IMG/VR virus record: IMGVR_UViG_3300014886_000120
Length of the DNA stretch: 64,000 nt
Strand: one strand, 5' to 3'
Source: a virus
Taxonomy: Duplodnaviria; Heunggongvirae; Uroviricota; Caudoviricetes
A model generated the notes under the pieces. It saw nothing but the letters and a program-made list of their open reading frames with translations, did no database searches and was not told where the DNA came from. This document shows, piece after piece, positions 1,587 to 63,967 of the stretch; positions within the stretch are counted from its first letter, which is position 1; each line of letters starts with the position of its first letter. The translations under genes and the position numbers were made by a program.

Positions 1587-4130
1587 CTACAAGTAAAAGT
1601 CTAGTCTGGACTTTCTCTGTGTATATGTCGAATTGAATACTTCCTTCCATGACGTACCTATCATCTCCAATATATCTTCTACTTTGTTCTTTATAGTCCT
1701 TACTAACATCCTGTCCCTGTCTATCTCTATTGGATATTCAGCTCTTTCAAGATCTGAAGCTTGAAGGAAACCAGCAACGTCAGAAAATATTTCTTTCTTT
1801 ATATGTCTCTTAGACCCCTTCTCTACAGTCAGGTTAAGAACTATCCGTTTGTATCTGTATGGTTTGATGTACACATAAAAGAACCTCTCACCTTCTTCAA
1901 TGTCTAGACCCAGTACTTGTCTTGCAAACTCAAAAGCTTTCAGAGTTACAATAGCCTTGTCATAGGAGTCCCTTGGTTGTCTAAGGATGCCAGTGATAGC
2001 TATTTTCTCCAGTGGATACTTACTCATCATCTCTATCTCTCTTATCACATACTTCTTGATATCCTCTATGGCACTGTCATTAAACACCATGTCAAGTACG
2101 TTACGTTGTACTATCTCAGTAAGCTCAGACTGATCCCTTCTTACCAGCTCTATCCCCTTGTATATTTTCCTGCCATCCACTGTTAGTCCAGCATAACGTT
2201 TCTTTGTGAATATTATTATCCTCTTGAAGTAGTCCTCTATGTCCAGTCTAAAGCTGGACGGATCAATGCTCCACTTCTCTGATATGAACTTATGGAGCTC
2301 CCGATGGATCATGTCCCTTATCCTTGCAGACTCCTCTTTATAGTCCTTGGTTTTAAGTACAAAAGCTATTGAGTCTGTGTCTCCAAATATCACTGTATAC
2401 CCGAAGCTCTCTATTATTTCCTTGATCTTCAGGAGCAATGTTCTACCAATGGTAGTGATGCTCTCAGCTATCTTATAGGAATACAATCTGGCAGCTGGGA
2501 ACTTCTTTTCTACATTACCACTGAAACCATAGAAGCCGTATGAACCATGGACAATGGACTTGAGAGCTAGCCTTCTCCTCTTTAGTCTCTCCACCATGTC
2601 AAAGTCCCTTTCCTTCTTAGCTTTCTCTATCTGTCTTTTGTTTTCTTCAAGTAGGGGAGCTAGCTTGTCAAGTATCTCTACAGTCCAGCTCTTCTCTACC
2701 TCAGGTCTAAGGTATTTCCATTCCGGTGTTACCTCTATTTCTCCAGCTACCTCATCGAATGTGTTCCAGCCAATGTTGAAGCTCTTTATTATGTTCACAT
2801 ACATTGAGCTGAAGTCCATCAAGCATACACTGTTGTATATCCCTCTCTTAGCCTCAAACACTGTAGCTCCAGAATACGACCTCCTAACCTTCTCTATAGG
2901 TCTGGTTCTGAGAGCTATCTTTCCATGAAGCAACCTTAGATAGGAGATGTCAGCCACCCTTGAGGGGTACATGGCATCATTGAAGTCCAGACCGGAGAGT
3001 CTCCTAACAGTGTCAACATATTCTATAAGGTCAAGCTCCTTGTCCAGGTTCTTGATTAAGAGTACGTCTCTAAGGTTGTAGTATATAACATCGAGATATG
3101 AACTGTCCCATACCTTGTCAATGTCAGTATACAGTCTCCTTTTACCATATCCAAGCTCCTTCCTACTAATAGCATCCAGAGTCTGGAACTTCCTTCCTCC
3201 TACAACTATGGAGTATATCTCGTTAAGGTCAAGGTAATGGCATCCCCCTAAGCTTATCTTTTCAGCTGACCATGTAGAGACTGTTCCAATGGAGGAAAGC
3301 ATCCTCACATCCAGCTTGAGCTTCCTCATACGTTTGATAAGGTATGCCATGTCAAACTTAGTAAACGAAATAATAAGGTCTGGATCTATATCTCTCAGAT
3401 ATACTAGGAAAGCTGAGAACATGTCTCTCTCATTTTCATAGTAATGGATATTCCTTGAGGAATACGAGCTCTTATCCTTTCTCCAGTAAAACACATGGTA
3501 TTCCCCCTCAAAGCTATCGTAGCATCCTATGATTATGACCGGAACTTTAGCTTTGTCCTTGGGTACCTTACCGTAACACTCAATGTCTACAAAAAGCTTC
3601 CTTAATGGAGGCTCATAATCCAGAGTACATGCCCTACAGTATTTGTCCGACCATACAATGTATCCCTTAGTCAGCTCAGGATGTTTAAGACACCATTCCA
3701 GATATTTGTCATCTACCTCTACACCGTCAGTAATCCCCTTGTCTATTACATACCTGTATGGAAACTTGATGTCAGCTTCATAGCTTTCTATCCCCCTGGG
3801 ATACCGTTTACTACGTCTATTATACAATGCTACCTTTAGCTCCCTAACGTACTTTGGCAGCTTGGTTATTATCTTGACTCCAGGAGCTGAAGCATCTAAC
3901 AGCCTGAATACTTCTCCATTGGGGCCCTGATGTTCTATCCTCTTTATCTTCTCCAGCTCCTCTGGTCTCCATTTAACATGTTCATAGTCCTCCCTTCTCA
4001 TATAGAAATAGGGTTCAAAGCTGTCGTCTCTTATAATGTATCTCCTGGAGCTTCTGTCTCTACAGAATATGTAGATAACCGATGAACCATGCTCTATCCT
4101 CTGATCAACAGCTGTCACTGCAAGCCTCAT
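1587..4130 (-). CDS. polB: family B DNA polymerase with 3'-5' exonuclease
   Basis: Exo I VDIECY, Exo II FTKFDMAYL, Exo III YYNLRD. Motif A DFSSMYVNII, motif B KSIVHGSYGFYG, motif C IFGDTDS. 847 aa. Confidence 0.9.
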   Translation of the reverse strand: MRLAVTAVDQRIEHGSSVIYIFCRDRSSRRYIIRDDSFEPYFYMRREDYEHVKWRPEELEKIKRIEHQGPNGEVFRLLDASAPGVKIITKLPKYVRELKVALYNRRSKRYPRGIESYEADIKFPYRYVIDKGITDGVEVDDKYLEWCLKHPELTKGYIVWSDKYCRACTLDYEPPLRKLFVDIECYGKVPKDKAKVPVIIIGCYDSFEGEYHVFYWRKDKSSYSSRNIHYYENERDMFSAFLVYLRDIDPDLIISFTKFDMAYLIKRMRKLKLDVRMLSSIGTVSTWSAEKISLGGCHYLDLNEIYSIVVGGRKFQTLDAISRKELGYGKRRLYTDIDKVWDSSYLDVIYYNLRDVLLIKNLDKELDLIEYVDTVRRLSGLDFNDAMYPSRVADISYLRLLHGKIALRTRPIEKVRRSYSGATVFEAKRGIYNSVCLMDFSSMYVNIIKSFNIGWNTFDEVAGEIEVTPEWKYLRPEVEKSWTVEILDKLAPLLEENKRQIEKAKKERDFDMVERLKRRRLALKSIVHGSYGFYGFSGNVEKKFPAARLYSYKIAESITTIGRTLLLKIKEIIESFGYTVIFGDTDSIAFVLKTKDYKEESARIRDMIHRELHKFISEKWSIDPSSFRLDIEDYFKRIIIFTKKRYAGLTVDGRKIYKGIELVRRDQSELTEIVQRNVLDMVFNDSAIEDIKKYVIREIEMMSKYPLEKIAITGILRQPRDSYDKAIVTLKAFEFARQVLGLDIEEGERFFYVYIKPYRYKRIVLNLTVEKGSKRHIKKEIFSDVAGFLQASDLERAEYPIEIDRDRMLVRTIKNKVEDILEMIGTSWKEVFNSTYTQRKSRLDFYL

Positions 4131-8598: not shown

Positions 8599-8858
8599 AA
8601 TACCTCCATTAGTAGTATATCCGAGAGATATAGTTCAACACATTTCCCACATAGGGCAATATTCCTTCCCCTAAACCATATAATGACTACAGGAGAGACC
8701 ATCTCTTTCCCACATATGGAACAGCTAACATGTGAACTAAAGTAAATATTCAAGTCAAACGAGGGGCTTGAACTATAATAATAATTGGGGCCTTCCAATG
8801 TGGTAGCCCATAAGGTACCAGTCCAGTATGAAGGATACAAGGATGCAGGAAAGGTCAT
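8595..8858 (-). CDS. small zinc-finger protein (paralog of 8862-9119)
   Basis: CSICGK...LCGKC; ends MEVL with GGAGGT encoded in its terminal codons. Confidence 0.35.
   Translation of the reverse strand: MTFPASLYPSYWTGTLWATTLEGPNYYYSSSPSFDLNIYFSSHVSCSICGKEMVSPVVIIWFRGRNIALCGKCVELYLSDILLMEVL
8616..8632. promoter_or_regulatory. palindromic motif TATATCCGAGAGATATA (motif 1)
   Basis: Inverted repeat TATATC/GATATA with a 5-nt spacer, 18 nt upstream of the radA start. One of about 14 copies. Confidence 0.5.
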
Positions 8859-12561: not shown

Positions 12562-13124
12562 TCTCCATAGTTTGTTTCATCCAGACTAAGGTAAGTATAT
12601 CCGAGAGATATAAAATACCGTATCTTCTTTCTATCTGACTTAGCTCTGTTCCATCTTGAATGCCATATCGATGGGTTAACCTCTATTAATAGCTTAACCG
12701 GTTCTTCTATGACAAAGTCTGGATAATAAATATGCTTACCATTATGGAATGGCCTGTTATGTTCATACTTTATGTTCAAGCTATCCAGTATCTCCCTAGC
12801 TTTTCTTTCTGGTGGAGTGTAATAGTTAGGATCTCTATTAGGCTTGCTAGCTACTATAGAACACAGCTTCCTGAACTTGAATGAACGTAGGAAGCTTACT
12901 CTCCATTCCCCATGCTTTTCACATTCACACACAGCCCATGTCCCTTCATGGTACTTTGGAAGCTTGTAGTTTCCCTCACAATGTGGACATGGATACTTTG
13001 CTGGTACAAGCACTCCGTTATGTAAGCTAAACAGCCCATGCTTGTTGCACATGTATATATCATCCTTACTCTTCAATGGAAGATAACCATCAAATTCTTT
13101 GTTGCATACTGGACATTTCAGCAT
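12504..13124 (-). CDS. zinc-finger protein with Vsr/DUF559-like (PD-(D/E)xK-fold) endonuclease domain
   Basis: N-terminal CPVC...CPHC...CEC. C-terminal YYPDFVIEEPVKLLIEVNPSIWH resembles the Vsr-like endonuclease core. Confidence 0.4.
   Translation of the reverse strand: MLKCPVCNKEFDGYLPLKSKDDIYMCNKHGLFSLHNGVLVPAKYPCPHCEGNYKLPKYHEGTWAVCECEKHGEWRVSFLRSFKFRKLCSIVASKPNRDPNYYTPPERKAREILDSLNIKYEHNRPFHNGKHIYYPDFVIEEPVKLLIEVNPSIWHSRWNRAKSDRKKIRYFISLGYTYLSLDETNYGEWEELIREKISLGRKVLNS
12596..12612. promoter_or_regulatory. motif 1 copy
   Basis: TATATCCGAGAGATATA, about 35 nt upstream of the 12561 start. Confidence 0.45.
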
Positions 13125-24346: not shown

Positions 24347-24363
24347 TATATCTCTCAGATATA
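24347..24363. promoter_or_regulatory. motif 1 copy (inverted spacer)
   Basis: TATATCTCTCAGATATA, 14 nt upstream of the vWA/TROVE-like gene start. Confidence 0.45.
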
Positions 24364-47657: not shown

Positions 47658-47674
47658 TACTTATATCTATATCC
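47658..47674. promoter_or_regulatory. motif 1 copy
   Basis: TATATCCGAGAGATATA, 20 nt upstream of the RHH gene start. Confidence 0.45.
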
Positions 47675-47685
47675 GAGAGATATAC

Positions 47686-51123: not shown

Positions 51124-51882
51124 TTAATACAAGTACACAGTTGAACCTTTAGTCTTGGTCTTAAACCCACTCCTATAACCATAGTCATACCTATAATCGT
51201 AATAGTAGAAGCCATAGTCACCAATCTCCCTTATGCCTCTGGATGTTATCTGATAGAGACAGTTGGTCTCTGGTTTAAAGGTCAACACATTAGAGAACTT
51301 GCCCAGTCTCTTACCAAATATTCTGCATCCATCCTTAAGAGCTGACTCTGTACTAGCAAACACTAGAGCCTTATGTGGAATATACCCTACTGGAGATGGA
51401 TTGTGGTTAGACCATAGGAATATAGACCTTGGATTATCCCTCTTACATAGTGCTATAGCAGCTGTCCCCCTTATTTCATCCAAAGCTTTAGTCAACCCGT
51501 ATCTCTCTATGTAGGAGAGGATAATCTCTGAGTCTACTTGACCTATATACTCATACTTGGATAGTCTCTGGCTATATATGATACCATTATGCACCAGAAT
51601 CCAACGCTTCGAGTACAAGGGATGGTTGTTATGTGGGTTCTTAGGAGTACCTTGGGTAGCTTGCCTAGTGTGTAGCAACGTTATATAACCAAATCGTTTA
51701 GGGAAGATACTGAGCTTGACGAATATAGAGGCTCTCACTGGAGCTTTAACTATGGTGCCGTTAGTGTATATCCCAGTTGCATCTTTCCCTCGATACTCTA
51801 TCTCTAGCAACAGTTGTCTGGCAAGTCTTCTAGCTTCTCTCTGGGTTAATCCCAGGTTAAGGAAACCAGCTATCCCACACAT
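51124..51882 (-). CDS. class-II (Ntn) glutamine amidotransferase domain protein
   Basis: N-terminal MCGIAG nucleophile-cysteine motif typical of AsnB/PurF/GlmS-type GATase II; 252 aa stand-alone. Confidence 0.65.
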   Translation of the reverse strand: MCGIAGFLNLGLTQREARRLARQLLLEIEYRGKDATGIYTNGTIVKAPVRASIFVKLSIFPKRFGYITLLHTRQATQGTPKNPHNNHPLYSKRWILVHNGIIYSQRLSKYEYIGQVDSEIILSYIERYGLTKALDEIRGTAAIALCKRDNPRSIFLWSNHNPSPVGYIPHKALVFASTESALKDGCRIFGKRLGKFSNVLTFKPETNCLYQITSRGIREIGDYGFYYYDYRYDYGYRSGFKTKTKGSTVYLY

Positions 51883-51903
51883 ATCAAGATTACCTCCTCT
51901 TCT

Positions 51904-53520
51904 CTAGGTAAAACCCTCTATTTTCCTAGGTAACACTCCTGGCTTTCTCCTAACCTTCTTAAACATCTTGTCCTTATCTACGATCTTGATGCCATGTCTA
52001 TCTAGCTCTTCTATTATAGCTGCCTTTAGAGATAGAAGTATCCTATCAAACTCTTCACGACTAATAAGACCCTTCCTAAAGCTGTATGGTAAGCCAAAGC
52101 AATTACTTGGTCTAGAAATATCAGTAGCTTGAGAGTACCCGTCTAGCCTAAAGCCATACAGCTGCTTCCCTCTCTCTCTCCTTAGCCCAAACAGTACTAT
52201 ATCGTAAGGATGATTAAGGTACATTTCTAGCTCTTTAAGAACTATCCTGGTTATTTCTAAAGACCACTCATCTGAGAATCCAATAGACAGCTTGTAACCT
52301 TCACTAGTCGGGATACCCCAGTTACCCAAAATGTTATAATAGTGATTTCGTAGCTTGCCAGTAGCAAATGCTCTAAACAGCTTGTACTCTCTTCTTGACA
52401 ACCCACATATACGTTTGTAGTCTTCGTACTTCAATCTCCTATTGTACACTATCCGTCTATGGTTGACATAGTAATTAGCTACACCTCTGGCTATCTTCAA
52501 GACTATCCTAGCTATCTCTGGGAAGCATAGCCATGCAGATGGAGGTGTACGATACTCGAATCCCCATGGCTTAGGTTCAATAGCTGATAATCTGTTGTAT
52601 CCATGTCTAGCATGACCAGACTCACTCCTTAAAGGCTTACCTATAAAGTCATCCAACATCTTTATTAGGTTACCACTTGGGAATATACCAAAATGTATGT
52701 GTCCACCAAGAGGATCATGGTCTCCTTTGACTCCAATAATATGATATACCCTGCTAGCCTTCATCAACAAATTGTGAATGTTACGTACTAGCTGTACATG
52801 ACTCACTGAAGGTTCTGGTCTTATCTCTAGCTGGCTACCAGCTCCATCACACCCAACATCTTCATGATACCCAGGAGTGTAATCCTCAGCTCTAACTATC
52901 CTCCCACCAATGAACACTTCAAATTCTGGATCACATCCTATGGTAACCTTGACAGCCCTCTTTCTCTTCTTGACCTTAGATAATGGAACCAGACCAAAAT
53001 GCTCTAGTGAAGATAGCATAGAGCTCAAAATGTCATGCTGAGTAGCTGTATAGTCATGAGTAAAGTCAGACAAAACCAGTACCTTTAGCTTTGGACAATA
53101 CCCACCACAGACAAGTTCGTTCAATTTAAGCTTTACACAGGCTCTAGATATGAACTCTATCTGAGAAGATATTAGATCGTCCCAGCATGAACCAAGCTCG
53201 TTAGACGGAGCTGTGAAGGGGATTAACACTTCTTGCTTCATATTACAAGAGACACAGTCAAGCTGACGTAGCTCTCTTGAACATCCAGAGAATATTAAAC
53301 ATTTAGACTCGTCTGATGACGGTACTTTAGGGTCATGGTATATTATCTCTGAATGTGCTGCTACACAGCTGAAATACTTTGATAGGAGGTCAATGTAGTA
53401 GCTGCTATGTTCCATAGTCTTCAGGACGCCAGGTACTACACTTGTCCCACCAGATAGAACTATCTTGTCTGAGTTCTTACTCTCCTCTCTCCTAGGCATT
53501 TTAATCTCCTCTTCTAGCAT
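51904..53520 (-). CDS. large hypothetical protein, candidate carboxylate-amine ligase (GS-like amidoligase) or PP-loop synthetase partner of the GATase
   Basis: GCDPEFEVFIGG resembles the ExE metal-binding strand of the glutamine-synthetase fold (GPEPEFF). N-terminal VLSGGTSVV is a degenerate PP-loop-like SGG motif. 22-nt gap to the GATase gene. Confidence 0.35.
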   Translation of the reverse strand: MLEEEIKMPRREESKNSDKIVLSGGTSVVPGVLKTMEHSSYYIDLLSKYFSCVAAHSEIIYHDPKVPSSDESKCLIFSGCSRELRQLDCVSCNMKQEVLIPFTAPSNELGSCWDDLISSQIEFISRACVKLKLNELVCGGYCPKLKVLVLSDFTHDYTATQHDILSSMLSSLEHFGLVPLSKVKKRKRAVKVTIGCDPEFEVFIGGRIVRAEDYTPGYHEDVGCDGAGSQLEIRPEPSVSHVQLVRNIHNLLMKASRVYHIIGVKGDHDPLGGHIHFGIFPSGNLIKMLDDFIGKPLRSESGHARHGYNRLSAIEPKPWGFEYRTPPSAWLCFPEIARIVLKIARGVANYYVNHRRIVYNRRLKYEDYKRICGLSRREYKLFRAFATGKLRNHYYNILGNWGIPTSEGYKLSIGFSDEWSLEITRIVLKELEMYLNHPYDIVLFGLRRERGKQLYGFRLDGYSQATDISRPSNCFGLPYSFRKGLISREEFDRILLSLKAAIIEELDRHGIKIVDKDKMFKKVRRKPGVLPRKIEGFT

Positions 53521-57834: not shown

Positions 57835-58440
57835 CTAGAAGGGATAGCTGCACCCAGAGAAAATAGCTTTTTTAGGTCTAAAAGTGATTACCTTCATTTT
57901 ATCCTTGTGATAAGCCTCTTTAGGTTTGTCCTCAATATATCTATACTTGGCATGAGGACAAGTCTTACACATACTTACGGGTATAAGCTCACCATTCTTT
58001 TTAGGACAGCTAACAGCTAAAACTGTCTGAGTCTTGGATATAGGGGTTATAGGCTTAAGCTCAATCTTCCTCTTAACCTCTATCAACCTACTGGAAATCC
58101 TATTCAAGACAGACTTAACATATCTAGGTAGTTTAGTGTCTAGGTAATAACGGTCTAACATATCATAATGGTTGAACTCCATAACCTCTCTTGTCTTGAG
58201 GTTTAAAACTATAACTCTAACCATCTGTGAGTTGCCATAAGCTCTAATATTATAATTCTTAACAGTTAATCCCTTTATGCTAAATATGTCCTCAATAGGT
58301 TTTGAGAAGGTAGATATAGGCTTACCATCTGCTGGGTATATAGTAACCTTAAGCTCCTGGGTATCCTCTACCAGAAATATTTGTCTATTCTTCTTACCCT
58401 TAACAACAATTATCTTTTTCTCAGCTATAGTAAATACCAT
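57835..58440 (-). CDS. hypothetical protein (201 aa)
   Basis: C-terminal CKTCPH. Confidence 0.35.
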   Translation of the reverse strand: MVFTIAEKKIIVVKGKKNRQIFLVEDTQELKVTIYPADGKPISTFSKPIEDIFSIKGLTVKNYNIRAYGNSQMVRVIVLNLKTREVMEFNHYDMLDRYYLDTKLPRYVKSVLNRISSRLIEVKRKIELKPITPISKTQTVLAVSCPKKNGELIPVSMCKTCPHAKYRYIEDKPKEAYHKDKMKVITFRPKKAIFSGCSYPF

Positions 58441-58502
58441 AATCTCACCATCATGCTACTACAAAAAAAGAAGAGGGTAGGACAGAGTATAAGCTCAAGA
58501 GC

Positions 58503-58829
58503 TTACTCCTCTGTCCACTTGATACTGATGCTATAAACTCCGTCCTTGTCTGGCTTTGCGTTCTCAAGCTCCGATAGAAGAATGTCTAGGAAGTGTTCAA
58601 GAGACCTATACATTGGCAATCTGGCGTTAGTGGGAACATACTTAGGTCTCCCATCTTTGCCTACAAGTATGTTCCCCTCTTTGTCCTTTCTGAACAGAGG
58701 CTTAAACTTAAGCCCCTGACCATAGAAGGCTACGAACCGTTTGAGGATGTCCTCACGGATGGGAACGTTATGTCTGACTTCGGTCTTTGCTCCGGTTAAA
58801 ACCGTCTTACCGATGGCTACCTTAGGCAT
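58503..58829 (-). CDS. hypothetical protein
   Basis: 108 aa; canonical TTTATATAG TATA box about 25-33 nt upstream (plus 58861-58872). Confidence 0.4.
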   Translation of the reverse strand: MPKVAIGKTVLTGAKTEVRHNVPIREDILKRFVAFYGQGLKFKPLFRKDKEGNILVGKDGRPKYVPTNARLPMYRSLEHFLDILLSELENAKPDKDGVYSISIKWTEE

Positions 58830-59088
58830 CCCAGGACACCGTATATGAGGGATAGGGATAAACTATATAAAGCTTTCGCTATTGTCCTTATCGTTAAGGT
58901 AAGGTTAAGAGGTTTTTCTCTATTTTGAGTATGTAAGGACATGGGAGAGGCTTCTCCCTTAAAGGTTTATACCATGTTTTCTTAAGAACCATCCCCACAC
59001 ATTACACCCTTTCACTATAAAACCCCAAAACACACCATTAAGCTTAGTATATGTTTGTGTTTTGTCTTGTCTGTCTTGTCGTGTGTAT

Positions 59089-59111
59089 AAAAAAGGTGGG
59101 AGGGGTGGGTT
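59089..59111 (-). terminator. C-rich + T6 terminator-like element (minus-strand sense CCCACCCCTCCCACCTTTTTT)
   Basis: Immediately after the stop of 59110-59340. Confidence 0.4.
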
Positions 59112-59340
59112 AGCTTGTGTGTGCCTTCAGCTCAACAAGTCTGTTCAGTGCATTTTCCAGAGCCTCAGATAGGGTTCTGAACCCTATGGCAACAGCCTTT
59201 ATCTCATATATGCAGACTCCAAAGGATGGCTCTATGTCTGTTCCAGTGTTGGCTATTTCGATGAGATACTCTCCATCGTCGAGTCTCATCTTTGTGTTGG
59301 ATTTCTCTAGAGTCTTTAATGTCTCCATGTTCCCATACAC
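59110..59340 (-). CDS. small hypothetical protein (cassette gene)
   Basis: 76 aa; motif-2 promoter upstream and terminator-like element at its stop. Confidence 0.4.
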   Translation of the reverse strand: MYGNMETLKTLEKSNTKMRLDDGEYLIEIANTGTDIEPSFGVCIYEIKAVAIGFRTLSEALENALNRLVELKAHTS

Positions 59341-59384
59341 CCTTAGGTAAGGGTAAAAGCTCTATGTCCTAATAAAGGTTAGCA

Positions 59385-59407
59385 TTTTTTAACAGCCTTA
59401 GTAAGCG
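59385..59407 (-). promoter_or_regulatory. motif 2: TTTTTTAACAGCCTTAGTAAGCG
   Basis: One of five about 23-nt copies containing the palindrome CTTA(S)TAAG and an A/T-rich block; upstream of 59110-59340. Confidence 0.45.
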
Positions 59408-59410
59408 TCA

Positions 59411-59427
59411 TAAAAAAGGGAGGGTGG
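59411..59427 (-). terminator. C-rich + T6 terminator-like element (CCACCCTCCCTTTTTT on the minus strand)
   Basis: 10 nt after the stop of 59437-59817. Confidence 0.35.
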
Positions 59428-59436
59428 AAGAGTAGC

Positions 59437-59817
59437 TTAAGCTATAATGCTCTGAGAGCTAGTTTGTCTCCGGCTACTCTCCTTGACTATCTGCTTCATA
59501 ACTTCAGCTACCATCTGAGCCTTCTTAACGTTCTCTTCTACCTTGCTGATTATCATGGAGGTCAGTAGGATACACATTGACTCTATAGCTTCCATGTATG
59601 TCTCTGGAGTTCTCTCCTTACCCATCAGCTTACAGTATGAGCTAGCCCATTCTACTGACATCTTAAGGATGTCTGGCAATATGTTGGTTTCCATGTCCTT
59701 AAGTATCCTTGTCAGAGTCATGGCATTGTGTTGATCTTCAGTTATGCTTCCCAGAACCTCTATTACCTTCTCCCTTAGAGCTTTAGCTGCCTCTCCGTCC
59801 AGCCTTCTCTCTTCCAT
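59437..59817 (-). CDS. small hypothetical protein (cassette gene)
   Basis: 126 aa; both motif families upstream. Confidence 0.4.
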   Translation of the reverse strand: MEERRLDGEAAKALREKVIEVLGSITEDQHNAMTLTRILKDMETNILPDILKMSVEWASSYCKLMGKERTPETYMEAIESMCILLTSMIISKVEENVKKAQMVAEVMKQIVKESSRRQTSSQSIIA

Positions 59818-59849
59818 CGTTACAGCCTTCTATAAGCAGTGGTATCTTC

Positions 59850-59866
59850 TATATCCCTCGGATATA
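59850..59866. promoter_or_regulatory. motif 1 variant
   Basis: TATATCCCTCGGATATA, 33 nt upstream of the 59817 start. Confidence 0.4.
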
Positions 59867-59880
59867 TTTAAGATTTAGCA

Positions 59881-59903
59881 TTTTTTAACAGCCTTACTAA
59901 GGG
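59881..59903 (-). promoter_or_regulatory. motif 2 copy
   Basis: TTTTTTAACAGCCTTACTAAGGG, upstream of 59437-59817. Confidence 0.45.
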
Positions 59904-59913
59904 AGCTAAAGAA

Positions 59914-60174
59914 CTACTCTAAGGAGGGGTAAAGGTAAGCTGGTATCTTATTATTCTCTAGCATCATGGCTAGCCACCATAGATCTATGATGTCAATCTC
60001 AGACGATACTTTGAACCTTATAGTTATCCTGTCTAGATGTTTGTCATAGCTGACATGAAACCTCTCAAGCTGCTGCTCGTTCATAATAGCTCTAGCTAAA
60101 TCCTCAACTCTTCTTATCATGCTATCAACATCCATGCTACCACCTCGAAGCCATGGTATTGAGCTATACAGCAT
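59914..60174 (-). CDS. small hypothetical protein (cassette gene)
   Basis: 86 aa; motif 2 ends 13 nt before the ATG. Confidence 0.4.
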   Translation of the reverse strand: MLYSSIPWLRGGSMDVDSMIRRVEDLARAIMNEQQLERFHVSYDKHLDRITIRFKVSSEIDIIDLWWLAMMLENNKIPAYLYPSLE

Positions 60175-60187
60175 TTAAGACTTGAGG

Positions 60188-60210
60188 TTTTTTAACAGCC
60201 TTACTAAGCC
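60188..60210 (-). promoter_or_regulatory. motif 2 copy
   Basis: TTTTTTAACAGCCTTACTAAGCC, ending 13 nt before the ATG of 59914-60174. Confidence 0.45.
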
Positions 60211-60225
60211 TGTTAAAGATTGGAG

Positions 60226-60639
60226 CTACTCCTCTTCCACATACACATGGAAGAACCCTAAGTACCTTGGCAGCTCTATGTAATCCTCATCATCTACGTC
60301 ATCTACTTCGATACCATGGAAAAACTTAGCTTCTGGGTTGTACTTACCAAAGCTATCCTTGAAGGCTTCTATGAATGTCTGGGTACTAATGTTTCTTATC
60401 TCATCCTCATGTTTCCTAAATAGCTCTTCATTGACTGGGCTAAAGTCACTATTCTCTATCTCCTCAGCTATGGCATCCACAATCTCTTTAACTGTCTCCT
60501 TTCCCGTTATGCCAATGGAAAAGCTTAGGCAAGCTGCTAGGTTGTCTGGAGCAAAAGCATGACCATGTCCCCTGAAATAGTCTACGTACCCAGCATAGTC
60601 TTCTGAGAACTCTACCACTATCTTATGCTTATCATTCAT
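60226..60639 (-). CDS. small acidic hypothetical protein (cassette gene)
   Basis: 137 aa. Confidence 0.4.
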   Translation of the reverse strand: MNDKHKIVVEFSEDYAGYVDYFRGHGHAFAPDNLAACLSFSIGITGKETVKEIVDAIAEEIENSDFSPVNEELFRKHEDEIRNISTQTFIEAFKDSFGKYNPEAKFFHGIEVDDVDDEDYIELPRYLGFFHVYVEEE

Positions 60640-60700
60640 GCCTAACCACTTCCCTTAGTGTTCTATTGTTATCCTACCATTCAGTATTTAAGACTTAGGG

Positions 60701-60723
60701 TTTTTTAACGGGCTTAGTAAGGG
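60701..60723 (-). promoter_or_regulatory. motif 2 copy
   Basis: TTTTTTAACGGGCTTAGTAAGGG, upstream of 60226-60639. Confidence 0.45.
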
Positions 60724-60733
60724 TGTTAAACAA

Positions 60734-60964
60734 CTATATCTGAGAGATATAGTTCTGTCCTTCAGCTAGCTCCACTATGAAGGTCTCAACGGCATACACT
60801 AGCTCTCTGGGATATCTCTCCATCATCTCGGTAAGCTCTTTATGGGTTACCCTACGGTATATCATTGAGTCATGGTTCTCCATAAGCCTACGTAGCTTAC
60901 TCTTTATCATGCCTACAACTATGTAGTTCATCCCTTTCCCTACCTTGGATACTTCCTTGTACAT
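60734..60964 (-). CDS. small hypothetical protein (cassette gene)
   Basis: 76 aa. Confidence 0.35.
   Translation of the reverse strand: MYKEVSKVGKGMNYIVVGMIKSKLRRLMENHDSMIYRRVTHKELTEMMERYPRELVYAVETFIVELAEGQNYISQI
60735..60751. promoter_or_regulatory. motif 1 copy
   Basis: TATATCTGAGAGATATA. Confidence 0.4.
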
Positions 60965-61133
60965 GCTTCTATAAACCTCTCCCTATCAAACCTAGGATTG
61001 TCAAGCTCGAAATATCTAGCTAAACGTAGCATGATCTCCTCTTTACTGGATGAAACCCTGATTATCCCAGCTATGTCCCGATAGTATTTCCTGGTCAACA
61101 CATTCCATCACCCCTTAAGAGACCGATGTTAAG

Positions 61134-61150
61134 TATATCTGAGGGATATA
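61134..61150. promoter_or_regulatory. motif 1 variant
   Basis: TATATCTGAGGGATATA, in the divergent promoter region. Confidence 0.4.
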
Positions 61151-61162
61151 AATCACTTATGG

Positions 61163-61185
61163 TTTTTTAACAGGCTTAGTAAGGA
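61163..61185. promoter_or_regulatory. motif 2 copy in the divergent promoter region
   Basis: TTTTTTAACAGGCTTAGTAAGGA, between the minus-strand cassette genes and the plus-strand HTH gene. Confidence 0.4.
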
Positions 61186-61295
61186 TGTGAAAAAATGCCA
61201 GCCACACATGGCAAGCTAGCCAATGAGAAATATTCAAGATGCTTATAAGGGAACTGAACATTCTTATAATGATAACAATGTGATTATATACTATA

Positions 61296-62141
61296 ATGTA
61301 TAATTGGATACACTTCTGTATTACAAAGTTTTATAAGGAGTTAAAAACTATTCAAATGTTAAAAAAAACGTGGTTGGAGATGGGAAGAATGGCAAGACCG
61401 AGAACCAAGGGAACGAGAATCTTAAGAACCTCACTAAAAGAGTACTTAGAGCAAGGACTAAGCTATAGGGAGATTGGCAACATACTAGGCTTAAGTAGAG
61501 AACTGGTTTATTACTATGCCAAACTATGGAATCTAAGGAATCTCAACGCACACAAGAAGTATAAGGAGTACTGTAAAACTAGACTCTACACCAGGAAGCT
61601 GATAAATCCCTTGATGTCCCTCCATGCTAATGCCTCAATGGATATATCCGAAATAACCTTTAGAAGACAGCGAGGGAAGAGATCCAGGTCTATACGCAAG
61701 TATATGCTAACCTTCACAAAGGGGAAGACCTACATAGTGTTCATGGATAACCAGAGAGATGAGGATATAGCTATGGCTATAACCAAACTCTTGACCCTTG
61801 GGATAATAAATAAGGGAGATAAAATCCTAGTGGATAAGCAGCTAAACAGTAAGTTACCATACACCAGCCTCAAAGGTGTGTATCTATGCAATACTCCTAA
61901 ATGGCATGCAAGTAAAAGCACCACCGAAAAAAGACATGGCTTCAAGACTTCGGTCTATGCCAAATTCTGGAGATTCAAGACCTCAAGCTATGCAAAGATG
62001 GATAACGACATGAAAGCACTCCTCCTAAAGATGTATCTTGAATCACTACAGCTAAACCCCAACTATGAAATCATCAACCCAGAAACACCAGAGAGATGGA
62101 TAAGGGAACTCCAAAGCATAACAGTAAAGACACCACACTAA
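61296..62141 (+). CDS. HTH-domain protein, the only supported plus-strand gene
   Basis: LEQGLSYREIGNILGLSRELVYYY resolvase/sigma-region-4-like HTH. TATA-like TTATATACTATA about 25 nt upstream. C-rich+T6 terminator-like element directly after the stop. Confidence 0.45.
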   Translation: MYNWIHFCITKFYKELKTIQMLKKTWLEMGRMARPRTKGTRILRTSLKEYLEQGLSYREIGNILGLSRELVYYYAKLWNLRNLNAHKKYKEYCKTRLYTRKLINPLMSLHANASMDISEITFRRQRGKRSRSIRKYMLTFTKGKTYIVFMDNQRDEDIAMAITKLLTLGIINKGDKILVDKQLNSKLPYTSLKGVYLCNTPKWHASKSTTEKRHGFKTSVYAKFWRFKTSSYAKMDNDMKALLLKMYLESLQLNPNYEIINPETPERWIRELQSITVKTPH

Positions 62142-62165
62142 ACCCACCCCACCCCTACATTTTTT
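62142..62165 (+). terminator. C-rich + T6 terminator-like element (ACCCACCCCACCCCTACATTTTTT)
   Basis: Directly after the stop of the plus-strand HTH gene, in the convergent gap with terL. Confidence 0.4.
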
Positions 62166-62252
62166 AAGGTATCAGATAAACGAATAGGAAAAGGAGAGGA
62201 TAAGGAGAAAATAAATATCCGGACTCTGGATGTATAGTTTTCGGTTTAAGGT

Positions 62253-63578
62253 TTATATGGAGGGTATTGTCCAGGAGGGTTTCTTAGGTTTAGTAATCAC
62301 CCATGTGAACTCTCTACTTTCAGAAGGCTCTATTTCTTTAAGTGCACACATTAATGCAGTAACCCTGTCATCACCCTTCCTGGTATCCCAAGTATAATGT
62401 CTAAGCTCGTTGAGGAGTCCCTGGAACTCATTTGGTATGATTATCTTCTCATGCTCAAACAATGACCTCATCCTTACCTGTAAGCTAGGAAGCTCCTGTC
62501 CCATGTTTATTGGAACTACTCTAAAACCTTTAATACCAAGCCTATCCTTAGTTCTCTGAGATTCAGACTTGGGGTTCAAGTCACAAAATATGTAGTCTGG
62601 CTTATACTTAATAGCAAAGGCTTCTATCCAGTCCTGTATGTTCTCATACTTCTTCCTATTCCAAGTCTGGACATCTAGTACTCTATACTTACCATCAACT
62701 AGTTCAACCACAACCAGAGCTGTCAAGTCAGCAAACCCATAGTCTATACCAAAGATAACTTTACCTCTCTTGTTCTCTGGATCATAAGGATTCTTGGTAT
62801 ATCCAATAGATTGTTTCCTTAGTAACGGAACTGGAACTACTGTATTAGTGATGGGATGAGGTTCACCTAGCCAGAACTGGGCAAACTGTTCCTCAGTAAG
62901 GTTCTTCCTAGCCTCCTCTATCATTTCAGAAGTAATCAACGGACAGTCTATAGCTTTCCAGTGGTACCTTTTCCATTCACTATAGGTCTTGGAATCTTCC
63001 CACATAGTTACAAACAAGCTGTTGTATTCCATTGGAGTACCAGAGAATATCAGCTTGGCATTAGGCTTACCAGCTATAATCCTGTAGCTGTCTCTAAGAG
63101 TAAAGTCATCTACAATGGCAGCTTCATCAATTATGACTGCATTACTATGTTGACCCTGTATAGACTTCAACGAATGTGGAAGAGCCTTAATGTATGAACC
63201 AGTGATAAACTTAACATAGGTTCTTAGTACTTCACCTTCAATGAACTCTTTGAATATGTTATGGCTGGGCAATAAGTCACTGGAGTACTCATACAGCTTT
63301 CTGGACTGTTCCTGTGACCCAGCTATTATGATGACATCATATGGCTTACCAATCTTCCATGCATACACTATAGCCAGGAAGATGCTTAGACATGAAAGGA
63401 GCTTAGACTTGCCTGTACCTCCAGCTGCACATATCAGAGCTCTGGATGTCTCCCTTATCTCCCTTAGTATTTCAGCTTGATACCTGAATGGTTTCTCATT
63501 GTACAAGTCCTCATAGAAGATGGCTGGATCACTCCACCATATGTTTAGCAGTATCTCCAGCCTAGCTGGCAGCTTCAT
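62253..63578 (-). CDS. terL: terminase large subunit (TerL)
   Basis: Walker A AAGGTGKSK, Walker B VIIDEA, coupling motif FSGTP, and C-terminal RNase-H-fold nuclease motif GIDYGFADLTALVVVE. Confidence 0.75.
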   Translation of the reverse strand: MKLPARLEILLNIWWSDPAIFYEDLYNEKPFRYQAEILREIRETSRALICAAGGTGKSKLLSCLSIFLAIVYAWKIGKPYDVIIIAGSQEQSRKLYEYSSDLLPSHNIFKEFIEGEVLRTYVKFITGSYIKALPHSLKSIQGQHSNAVIIDEAAIVDDFTLRDSYRIIAGKPNAKLIFSGTPMEYNSLFVTMWEDSKTYSEWKRYHWKAIDCPLITSEMIEEARKNLTEEQFAQFWLGEPHPITNTVVPVPLLRKQSIGYTKNPYDPENKRGKVIFGIDYGFADLTALVVVELVDGKYRVLDVQTWNRKKYENIQDWIEAFAIKYKPDYIFCDLNPKSESQRTKDRLGIKGFRVVPINMGQELPSLQVRMRSLFEHEKIIIPNEFQGLLNELRHYTWDTRKGDDRVTALMCALKEIEPSESREFTWVITKPKKPSWTIPSI

Positions 63579-63967
63579 TGCTTACCACTTTCATACTCTT
63601 CAAATCTTTTTAGTACCTTACGTTGCTGTAACGGAGGCAGTTCTTCAATGGCATACCTCAACCTATCGTATATCTCCTCTTCTGATTTAGTGTCCTCTAT
63701 GCTTAGCTCATCCTTGTACCTCAAGGCAGTGTTCAGTACAGCATCAGCTATCCTAATGATTTCCCTAGTCTCTTTCCTAGCCTCTGGATCATCAAGGTTG
63801 TTCTCTACCTTGGAGAGCTGATTGCTAAGATCCCTCAGCTGTCTGATTATCAAGGTGGTAGCTTCCAGTTCCTGCTCTATACGTTCCTTGAGTAGTTTCT
63901 TCCTTAGCTTGTTGGACTTGATAGAAGCTTCAAGGTATTTCTCATGCTTGCTAAAGTACTTGGACAA
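63575..63967 (-). CDS. coiled-coil protein, candidate terminase small subunit
   Basis: ATGA-coupled immediately upstream of terL; 130 aa, charged and coiled-coil. Position is the only evidence. Confidence 0.3.
   Translation of the reverse strand: MSKYFSKHEKYLEASIKSNKLRKKLLKERIEQELEATTLIIRQLRDLSNQLSKVENNLDDPEARKETREIIRIADAVLNTALRYKDELSIEDTKSEEEIYDRLRYAIEELPPLQQRKVLKRFEEYESGKQ

Follow-up and report, generated by a model that had tools for sequence, protein, structure and literature searches.

What is the purpose of a 3-kb block of very small genes that lies beside the gene for the large terminase subunit (TerL) of an archaeal tailed virus, repeats one palindromic motif at its promoters and faces a single gene on the other strand? 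The block occupies positions 59089–62165 of a 64,000-nucleotide stretch of IMG/VR record IMGVR_UViG_3300014886_000120 (hereafter the window). The answer that we favour, with a confidence somewhat above even, is a co-regulated, recombination-prone array of accessory genes with an operator probably bound by the product of the opposite-strand gene, a protein combining a helix-turn-helix (HTH) with a DDE/RNase-H-fold domain (the HTH-DDE protein). That the block is a distinct regulatory module, as an earlier sequence-only reading of the same DNA had proposed, was borne out by a promoter-linked motif, a divergent gene for a DNA-binding protein and oligo-T terminator-like ends.

A search of the window for the repeated motif, TTTTTTAACRGSCTTASTAAG, returned exactly five copies with zero mismatches, at 59385, 59881, 60188, 60701 and 61163, just where the sequence-only reading had placed them, and none elsewhere in the 64 kb (chance expectation 0.02). 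The core CTTASTAAG was confined to the same five places. The earlier description of a repeated motif containing a palindrome held, but the motif as written is 21 nt long, not 23 nt. Matches to TTTTTTAACRGSCTTASTAAG on the reverse strand with 2–3 mismatches were found at four of the five sites, which indicates that it is the better-conserved, promoter-proximal half of an imperfect palindrome of ~33 bp, AACA-N2-CTTAsTAAG-N2-TGTT. A table of operator positions was compiled from 32 non-identical sites taken from relatives of the virus (see below) and compared with the window:

Positions −4 to +4 (core): CTTAnTAAG, essentially invariant in relatives; the same in the window.
Positions ±5 and ±6: vary freely in relatives, mirror-complementary at 6% and 34% of sites; variable in the window.
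Positions ±7 to ±10 (arms): AACA and TGTT, essentially invariant in relatives; the same in the window.
Position ±11 (also +12, in the proximal arm): GCAACA type in relatives; TTAACA type in the window.

The difference between window and relatives at ±11 was symmetric and, as at +12 of the proximal arm, fixed in every copy of each clade. The promoter-proximal arm was better conserved than the distal arm and ran into a conserved stretch at the position of the B recognition element (BRE), 5' of the TATA box. The variable positions ±5 and ±6 lack mirror complementarity, which rules out a hairpin or cruciform reading of the palindrome and argues for a protein-recognition site. A motif scan with window-type arms of IMG/VR, in a collection without this virus's own genome, returned single chance matches only.

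All five copies shared one layout, in which the palindrome was followed by 8 nt (consensus CCCTAAGT), a TATA-like cTTAAATA, ~30 nt, a Shine-Dalgarno-like GAGGTG or GGGGTG and the start codon. The palindrome centre lay 69–80 nt and the TATA-like box ~45 nt from the start codon, and the operator would span about −38 to −70 from the predicted transcription start (TATA, BRE and transcription-start assignments were made from sequence alone). The units were as follows:

59369–59417, minus strand: unit p1, with operator 59385–59417, an 8-nt spacer and the TATA-like box TTTATTAG at 59369–59376.
59865–59913, minus strand: unit p2, with operator 59881–59913 (distal arm degenerate) and the TATA box CTTAAATA at 59865–59872.
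60172–60220, minus strand: unit p3, with the best palindrome, TTTAACAGGCTTAGTAAGGCTGTTAAA, within 60188–60220 and the TATA box CTTAAATG at 60172–60179.
60685–60733, minus strand: unit p4, with operator 60701–60733 and the TATA box CTTAAATA at 60685–60692.
61147–61195, minus strand: unit p5, with operator 61163–61195 and the TATA-like box GATTTATA at 61147–61154.

Units p2 and p5 overlapped copies of a genome-wide palindrome, TATATC-N5-GATATA, at 59850–59866 and 61134–61150, and a hairpin with T6 (61190–61213) was located directly upstream of p5. A scan for bacterial-type promoters and terminators found no excess over shuffled controls, as expected of an archaeal system.

The array of small minus-strand genes and its five motif copies corresponded to the earlier description, but the cassette contains six small open reading frames (ORFs), not five; g6 was absent both from the sequence-only reading and from the gene calls of the source:

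59110–59328, minus strand: g1, 72 amino acids (aa), acidic (isoelectric point (pI) 4.8); start probably shorter than the longest ORF, following the source gene call.
59437–59817, minus strand: g2, 126 aa.
59914–60135, minus strand: g3, 73 aa from an internal ATG after GAGGTG; start probably shorter than the longest ORF.
60226–60639, minus strand: g4, 137 aa, pI 4.4, with 32 D+E residues and a GHGH motif.
60734–60964, minus strand: g5, 76 aa, basic; its last codons form a copy of the genome-wide palindrome (60735–60751).
60940–61101, minus strand: g6, 53 aa, basic, with a GTG start after GGGGTGATGG and the motif copy at 61163 (p5) upstream.

Because g5 and g6 overlap by 25 nt, they probably form one transcript from p5. 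Pfam, PHROG and PDB profile searches with the six small proteins and their relatives gave no credible match, including no HTH or ribbon-helix-helix (RHH) match among the six in Pfam and PHROG. A homologue search with g4 returned the query itself only, and a single-sequence AlphaFold2 (AF2) model of its product was unusable (predicted local distance difference test (pLDDT) score 41).

The ends of the transcription units are marked by terminator-like elements:

59089–59111, minus strand: array end, C-rich CCCACCCCTCCCACC and T6 directly after the g1 stop codon.
59411–59427, minus strand: internal element, CCACCCTCCC and T6 after the g2 stop codon.
62142–62165, plus strand: end of the HTH-DDE gene, CCCACCCCACCCCTACA and T6 directly after the stop codon.
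61361–61368, minus strand: T8 preceded by a pyrimidine-rich tract, inside the 5' leader of the HTH-DDE gene.

The first three had been described as identical terminators. C-rich tracts with T6 did follow three stop codons, and the 20 nt before the T-run of these elements were 55–65% C (65% at the array end) compared with a background of 17–25%, but exact matches were limited to CCCACCCCTCCC (59098–59109, minus strand) and CCCACCCCACCC (62143–62154, plus strand), and the C-rich tract is not conserved in relatives, where only the T-run is found. As a family-wide terminator feature the tract was rejected, being specific to this genome. In relatives, most array genes have a run of T6–T11 behind them. 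Archaeal transcription terminates at oligo-T, and the T-runs of the window fit this. Runs of T6 or longer numbered nine per strand in the 64 kb, with five of the nine on the minus strand falling between 58.4 and 61.4 kb, and a run of T5 or longer followed only ~8 of 131 minus-strand genes; the cassette region is thus unusually punctuated. T-runs were strongly avoided window-wide, which implies that transcription outside the cassette proceeds in very long units. Within the array T6 was found only after g1, after g2 and upstream of p5, so g6-g5, g4 and g3 may be subject to transcriptional read-through. The T6 of the distal arm of p1 (59412–59417) doubles as the T-run of the g2 element. Together with T6 at 61927–61932 and 61190–61195, the T8 could block read-through from TerL into the array. 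One further site of this kind, a pyrimidine-rich T7 at 58463, lay outside the block.

A search of IMG/VR with TerL identified two related genomes of 108–110 kb, L009 and L010 (56% identity). Both encoded, in order, TerL, an HTH-protein homologue on the opposite strand, 10–11 small genes and homologues of the window genes 58503–58829 and 57835–58440. With a site model derived from the exact copies, nine units of operator plus TATA box were identified in L009 and 8–9 in L010, all within the array. A strict-pattern scan of whole IMG/VR contigs likewise placed every L009 and L010 match inside the array. Five more array fragments, from different samples, came from a metagenome scan. L039 (HTH protein 35% and TerL 38% identical) represented a third clade at a greater distance and had retained the core CTTAsTAAG with different arms. 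Profile-based locus searches of metagenome and genome collections confirmed nothing further. The suggestion that the cassette had been acquired found no support, because its GC content was the same as that of the remainder of the genome and the module was syntenic among relatives at 38–60% TerL identity, the HTH-DDE protein having diverged in step (35–43%).

The genes within the array were far from constant. Orthologues in relatives were identified for three of the six window genes and none were found for g2, g3 and g5. Those of g1 (L009 16039–16278, L010 16123–16374) were 36–37% identical, and g4, the most widely conserved cassette gene, had orthologues in L009, L010 and L041 at 43–47% identity. 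The most conserved array gene by identity, above TerL, was g6, which is ~70% identical to the N-terminus of the 98-aa first array genes of L009 (12612–12908) and L010 (12630–12926); these homologues carry an extra Cys-rich, zinc-ribbon-like tail. Between L009 and L010, two slots held unrelated genes, and the repeated promoter/terminator units marked the breakpoints: homology stopped just past one promoter and restarted at the next terminator or operator. A further locus, L044, was without one L009 cassette, and its junction fell in a start region, ATGATAACAAG, common to two different genes. In L009 two unrelated cassette genes, at 12987 and 13366, share these first 11 nt, ATGATAACAAG, and at ~330 in L044 the promoter of the first ATGATAACAAG gene is joined to the body of the second. 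The recombining repeat therefore seems to reach through the 5' leader into the start codon.

This organisation resembles that of the promoter-early stem-loops (PeSLs) in the hyperplastic regions of T4-type phages, where promoter-terminator cassettes allow modules to be shuffled by recombination (Arbiol et al., 2010, PMC2839356; Comeau et al., 2014, PMC4122927). In both, short conserved composite repeats of terminator and promoter flank small, mostly ORFan, non-core genes in a variable region, and what distinguishes close relatives is that whole genes have been inserted, deleted or replaced, the breaks in homology falling at the repeats. In the window a TATA-like box was found in five of five units and oligo-T upstream of p1 and p5, and all copies lay within 59.4–61.2 kb; in L009 and L010, T6–T11 preceded most units. 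The features that define PeSLs as a functional class, without implying homology, thus appear to be present here: a repeat joining promoter and terminator, clustering among ORFans and breakpoints at the repeats. Excised mini-circles formed by recombination between neighbouring repeats are a further feature of the class. The array differs in its archaeal BRE/TATA promoter in place of a sigma-70 promoter, in an oligo-T terminator (with a C-rich tract in this genome) in place of a stem-loop, in the additional 27–33 bp palindromic operator of each unit, in being confined to one array next to TerL where T4-type phages have several regions, and in its dedicated, linked HTH-DDE gene; PeSLs and the array share no sequence homology. 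By analogy, and on balance, we regard the array as the archaeal-virus counterpart of a PeSL-type hyperplastic region with an operator added.

The candidate reader of the operator is encoded by the gene divergent from the array:

61389–62141, plus strand: HTH-DDE gene, 250 aa, pI 10.1, with an N-terminal transposase-type HTH and an RNase-H-fold domain.

As had been recognised, no other credible gene lies on the plus strand of the window, but the earlier start at 61296 should most likely be moved to M32 at 61389, since all homologues begin M-A/V-R-P-R, and the DDE/RNase-H domain had been missed. An AF2 model based on seven homologues (pLDDT 72) showed a three-helix HTH followed by β1-β2-β3-α-β4-α-β5-α. 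A putative catalytic triad was formed by D85 in β1, D149 after β4 and E180 in the next helix, in a segment with pLDDT below 50. D85 was invariant, D149 nearly so, and 13 of the 14 sequences compared, a set that included remote homologues, had E or D at position 180. The model was structurally closest to retroviral integrases and IS21/mariner transposases. At the sequence level, Pfam returned transposase-type HTH families only and no catalytic domain, so that membership of a curated transposase or integrase family was not found, and a PDB profile search matched the HTH region only (best IS21 IstA, E 2e-7). Judged by the modelled structure and the triad, the protein belongs to the DDE fold class outside any curated family. 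A single-sequence search for homologues in IMG/VR found nothing, and a HMMER search of 1.84 billion representative proteins gave 27 matches, eight of which were remote full-length homologues of 224–244 aa that keep D, D and E/D and are annotated for the HTH only. The family is rare and without annotation, and the HTH-DDE protein is its founding member, joining an HTH to a DDE fold. Its gene is present in single copy and has diverged together with the virus.

Its N-terminal HTH, predicted RNase-H-like fold and D-D-E residues at canonical positions are shared with the DDE superfamily (IS21 IstA, Tc1/mariner, retroviral integrase), and the terminal inverted repeats of such elements may have a parallel in inverted palindromes that flank the gene in relatives. 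These palindromes, AACATG-CTTATATAAT-CATGTT with a TATA-like core, share the operator arms and flank the HTH-DDE gene in L010 (11631–11652 and 12525–12546) and L040 (109–130 and 1010–1031); they are 22–28 bp long and ~920 bp apart, an IS-like arrangement. In L050 one such palindrome was found 3' of the gene, at 841–877, after a T-run terminator. The window lacks these palindromes; at 62166–62191, despite conservation of the adjoining ATAAACGAATAG, the 28-bp palindrome is cleanly absent, and the C-rich+T6 element stands in its place at the corresponding 3' position beside ATAAACGAATAG. Unlike DDE transposases, the protein has no Pfam catalytic-domain match and is encoded in single copy, and neither target-site duplications nor defined ends were found at its gene.

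Six loci extend past the array (the window, L009, L010, L039, L040 and L041), and in every one the HTH-DDE gene adjoins it. Gene and array are divergent in the window, L009 and L010 and co-directional in L039 and L041. An operator copy lay directly upstream of the gene in L039, and in L009, L010, L040 and L041 the operator nearest the gene had TATA boxes at canonical spacing on both sides. The proposal that the HTH protein binds the motif thus remains reasonable, given a gene that adjoins the array in every such locus and operators or arm-sharing palindromes at its own promoter in relatives, and circumstantially it is the best candidate. Co-variation of arms and recognition helix was considered as proof of binding and set aside as weak, with three clades only. 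Virus regulons in which a small DNA-binding protein acts on repeated operators include the anti-CRISPR operons with their Aca repressors, the early promoters of SSV1 with F55, and SIRV with SvtR. Similarly, one palindromic site recurs here at the promoters of several small accessory or early genes with a candidate regulator encoded beside its targets, and related sites at the candidate's own promoter in relatives suggest autoregulation. In contrast to those systems, the operator is upstream of BRE/TATA and not over the TATA box or transcription start, and the candidate has 250 aa with a predicted DDE/RNase-H-fold domain, where those systems have small RHH or HTH proteins. Pfam/PHROG-type searches found no homology to Aca, F55 or SvtR-type regulators.

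In the model that we favour, the block is the window's copy of a variable small-gene array beside TerL that is conserved in a family of ~110–128 kb archaeal tailed viruses, each unit consisting of a composite regulatory element and a short accessory gene. The element often starts with the putative oligo-T terminator of the preceding gene and continues with the 27–33 bp palindromic operator AACA-N2-CTTAnTAAG-N2-TGTT with clade-specific outer bases, 8–9 nt, the BRE/TATA promoter and a Shine-Dalgarno sequence. A dimeric, sequence-specific operator binder would switch all units together as one temporal class. In archaea, activator sites are generally located 5' of the BRE, and repressors cover the TATA box or the start site; activation is favoured because the operator abuts the upstream side of the BRE, the usual activator site. 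The binder would most likely be the adjacent, oppositely oriented HTH-DDE protein, maybe domesticated as a regulator, and the repeated units of ~50–75 nt would be the substrates of recombination by which cassette genes are gained, lost and replaced. Several of these ORFan products are strongly acidic, and a role in host takeover or anti-defence is our guess. The analysis showed the architecture of the repeats, their conservation and confinement to the array, the replacement of genes between relatives and the DDE-like fold; promoter activity, the binder, the direction of regulation and gene functions are what we infer from the sequence. To our knowledge, almost nothing is known about how transcription is organised in large tailed viruses of uncultivated sediment archaea. 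Here a promoter grammar of operator, BRE/TATA, Shine-Dalgarno sequence and oligo-T can be read from sequence, and the array would represent a defined regulon of fast-evolving accessory genes, the usual place of host-takeover and anti-defence functions, and an archaeal counterpart of the T4-type shuffling cassettes.

Several observations weigh against this model. Three of the five window units have no T5 or longer run upstream, so that not all are insulated, and the promoter assignments (TATA, BRE and start) are themselves predictions. The core CTTAnTAAG is identical over three clades and the predicted recognition helix of the HTH-DDE protein differs (RELVYYY, PSTIYRH and KATIFEI), a combination with which a conserved host factor could read the core. 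The promoter region of the HTH-DDE gene in the window is without a clear operator, and retention of the D-D-E triad even in remote homologues would argue for retained catalysis and not for a purely regulatory role. As all copies are alike, recombination between repeats and site-specific exchange would leave indistinguishable products.

A rival view, which we consider rather unlikely, accepts the array and its operator-promoters but holds that the operator is read by another factor, either a host regulator or a viral protein such as g6, and that the HTH-DDE protein is an integrase, transposase or DNA-processing nuclease that merely adjoins the array. The invariant core beside a diverged recognition helix would fit this, the conserved triad suggests an enzyme, the gene is always near TerS/TerL (TerS being the small terminase subunit) even in the differing arrangement of L039, and g6 is the array gene with the highest identity, ~70%. 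The truncated HTH-DDE gene of L041, beside a cellular-type dehydrogenase gene, looks like an integration junction. L039 has the core motif but no g6 homologue, however; an operator copy precedes the HTH-DDE gene there, arm-sharing palindromes flank it elsewhere, and neither virus ends nor repeated transposase-binding sites were identified. As to L041 itself, in this 3.4-kb metagenome contig (1875–3371) the HTH-DDE gene is cut short near residue 150, a little ahead of the second Asp of the triad, and is followed by a convergent cellular-type gene of the L-sulfolactate/malate dehydrogenase family; the junction is either one between virus and host, as in a provirus remnant, or an assembly chimera. 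Alternatively the HTH-DDE protein might be an active recombinase acting on the palindromes, which excises, inserts and inverts promoter-equipped cassettes in the manner of an integron but with a DDE in place of a tyrosine recombinase. This appears improbable to us, as does integron-like capture and shuffling of cassettes by an active DDE enzyme, to which we attach equally slight weight together with its milder form, a domesticated transposase with former end-repeats now serving as operators of a viral regulon. As in integrons, a recombinase-like gene stands beside an array of short genes parted by imperfect palindromes, which are alike in any one genome but not from one genome to another. The D-D-E residues are conserved, cassettes are replaced or deleted between close relatives, and array and gene have one relative orientation in the window, L009 and L010 and the opposite one in L039 and L041. 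The enzyme is, however, DDE-like and no IntI tyrosine recombinase; each cassette has its own TATA-like promoter and is not promoterless and served by a Pc promoter; and no attI-like site was found. The palindromes stand in a fixed phase to TATA boxes and start codons, which promoter function explains and recombination does not need, and the one deletion junction, at the shared ATGATAACAAG start region, is off the palindrome centre. Homologous recombination between 50–75 nt repeats would suffice, as in PeSLs, and the evidence for inversion comes from short metagenome contigs, of which L041 may be chimeric. Control of a regulon by a domesticated transposase and cassette exchange by a recombinase would each, if true, be mechanistically new among viruses of archaea.

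We give very little credence to a strong form of the two origins suggested by the sequence-only reading, a recently acquired mobile cassette (in effect a transposon bounded by the inverted C-rich+T6 elements and equipped with its own transposase) or a lysis/lysogeny switch. An inverted similarity of ~25 nt, A6...GGGGTGGGTT at 59089–59111 and AACCCACCCC...T6 at 62142–62165, does flank a block containing a DDE-type gene. Against this, synteny at 38–60% TerL identity with an HTH-DDE protein diverged in step largely refutes recent acquisition, the GC content is that of the genome and the C-rich tract is missing in relatives. A third similar element occurs inside the block and the pyrimidine-rich T7 at 58463 outside it, and each element begins right after a stop codon, as a terminator would. 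With 27 matches in 1.84 billion representative proteins the family is too rare to be a spreading insertion sequence. As for a switch, there is no repressor/Cro or repressor/antirepressor pair, and operators do not cover two divergent promoters; they lie upstream of five co-directional promoters, with one only in the divergent region. The least credible of the alternatives is that the palindromes are packaging-recognition (pac-like) sites and the HTH-DDE protein an accessory packaging nuclease or DNA-recognition factor. Gene and array are linked to TerS/TerL in every arrangement seen, but a separate TerS candidate exists upstream of TerL (63575–63967), the distance between sites follows the length of the genes, the sites keep in phase with TATA boxes and start codons, and the structural model comes closest to integrases and transposases rather than to terminases.

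Nearly all genes of the window are on the minus strand, with a strong strand skew. They include genes for a family-B DNA polymerase, a RadA/Rad51 recombinase with an HhH domain and an ATP-dependent DNA ligase, together with the terminase genes:

62253–63578: TerL, beside the cassette.
63575–63967: TerS candidate upstream of TerL, with homologues.

This gene set, and metagenomic contigs of 110–128 kb carrying proteins identical to those of the window, identify the window as part of a large tailed virus of an archaeon. Fragments of related viruses originated from Guaymas Basin sediment assemblies. The window had no DNA similarity to 50,697 phage records and no tRNA genes were found in it; RadA, used as a host clue against genome contigs, gave no match, and no host-genome match was obtained. 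A phiEco32-like COOH-NH2 ligase gene (51904–53520) is located beside a glutamine-amidotransferase-like gene, the pair spanning 51124–53520; such a pair, indicative of peptide modification, is unusual for an archaeal virus. Between the cassette terminator and the next gene, 280 nt (58830–59109) are without a gene and contain a hairpin, GGGAGAGGCTTCTCCC, at 58944–58959; an Rfam search of 57–64 kb, including this stretch, gave no match.

The second palindrome, TATATC-N5-GATATA, occurred in 15 copies window-wide against 0.4 expected, for example at 3387–3403, 8616–8632, 24347–24363, 47668–47684, 59850–59866, 60735–60751 and 61134–61150. The copies checked lay over TATA boxes or just 5' of minus-strand starts, three of them within the cassette. 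Relatives have another palindrome, GATAGTWACTATC, at the same position (11 copies in 21 kb of L009). TATATC-N5-GATATA is probably the site of a global regulator.

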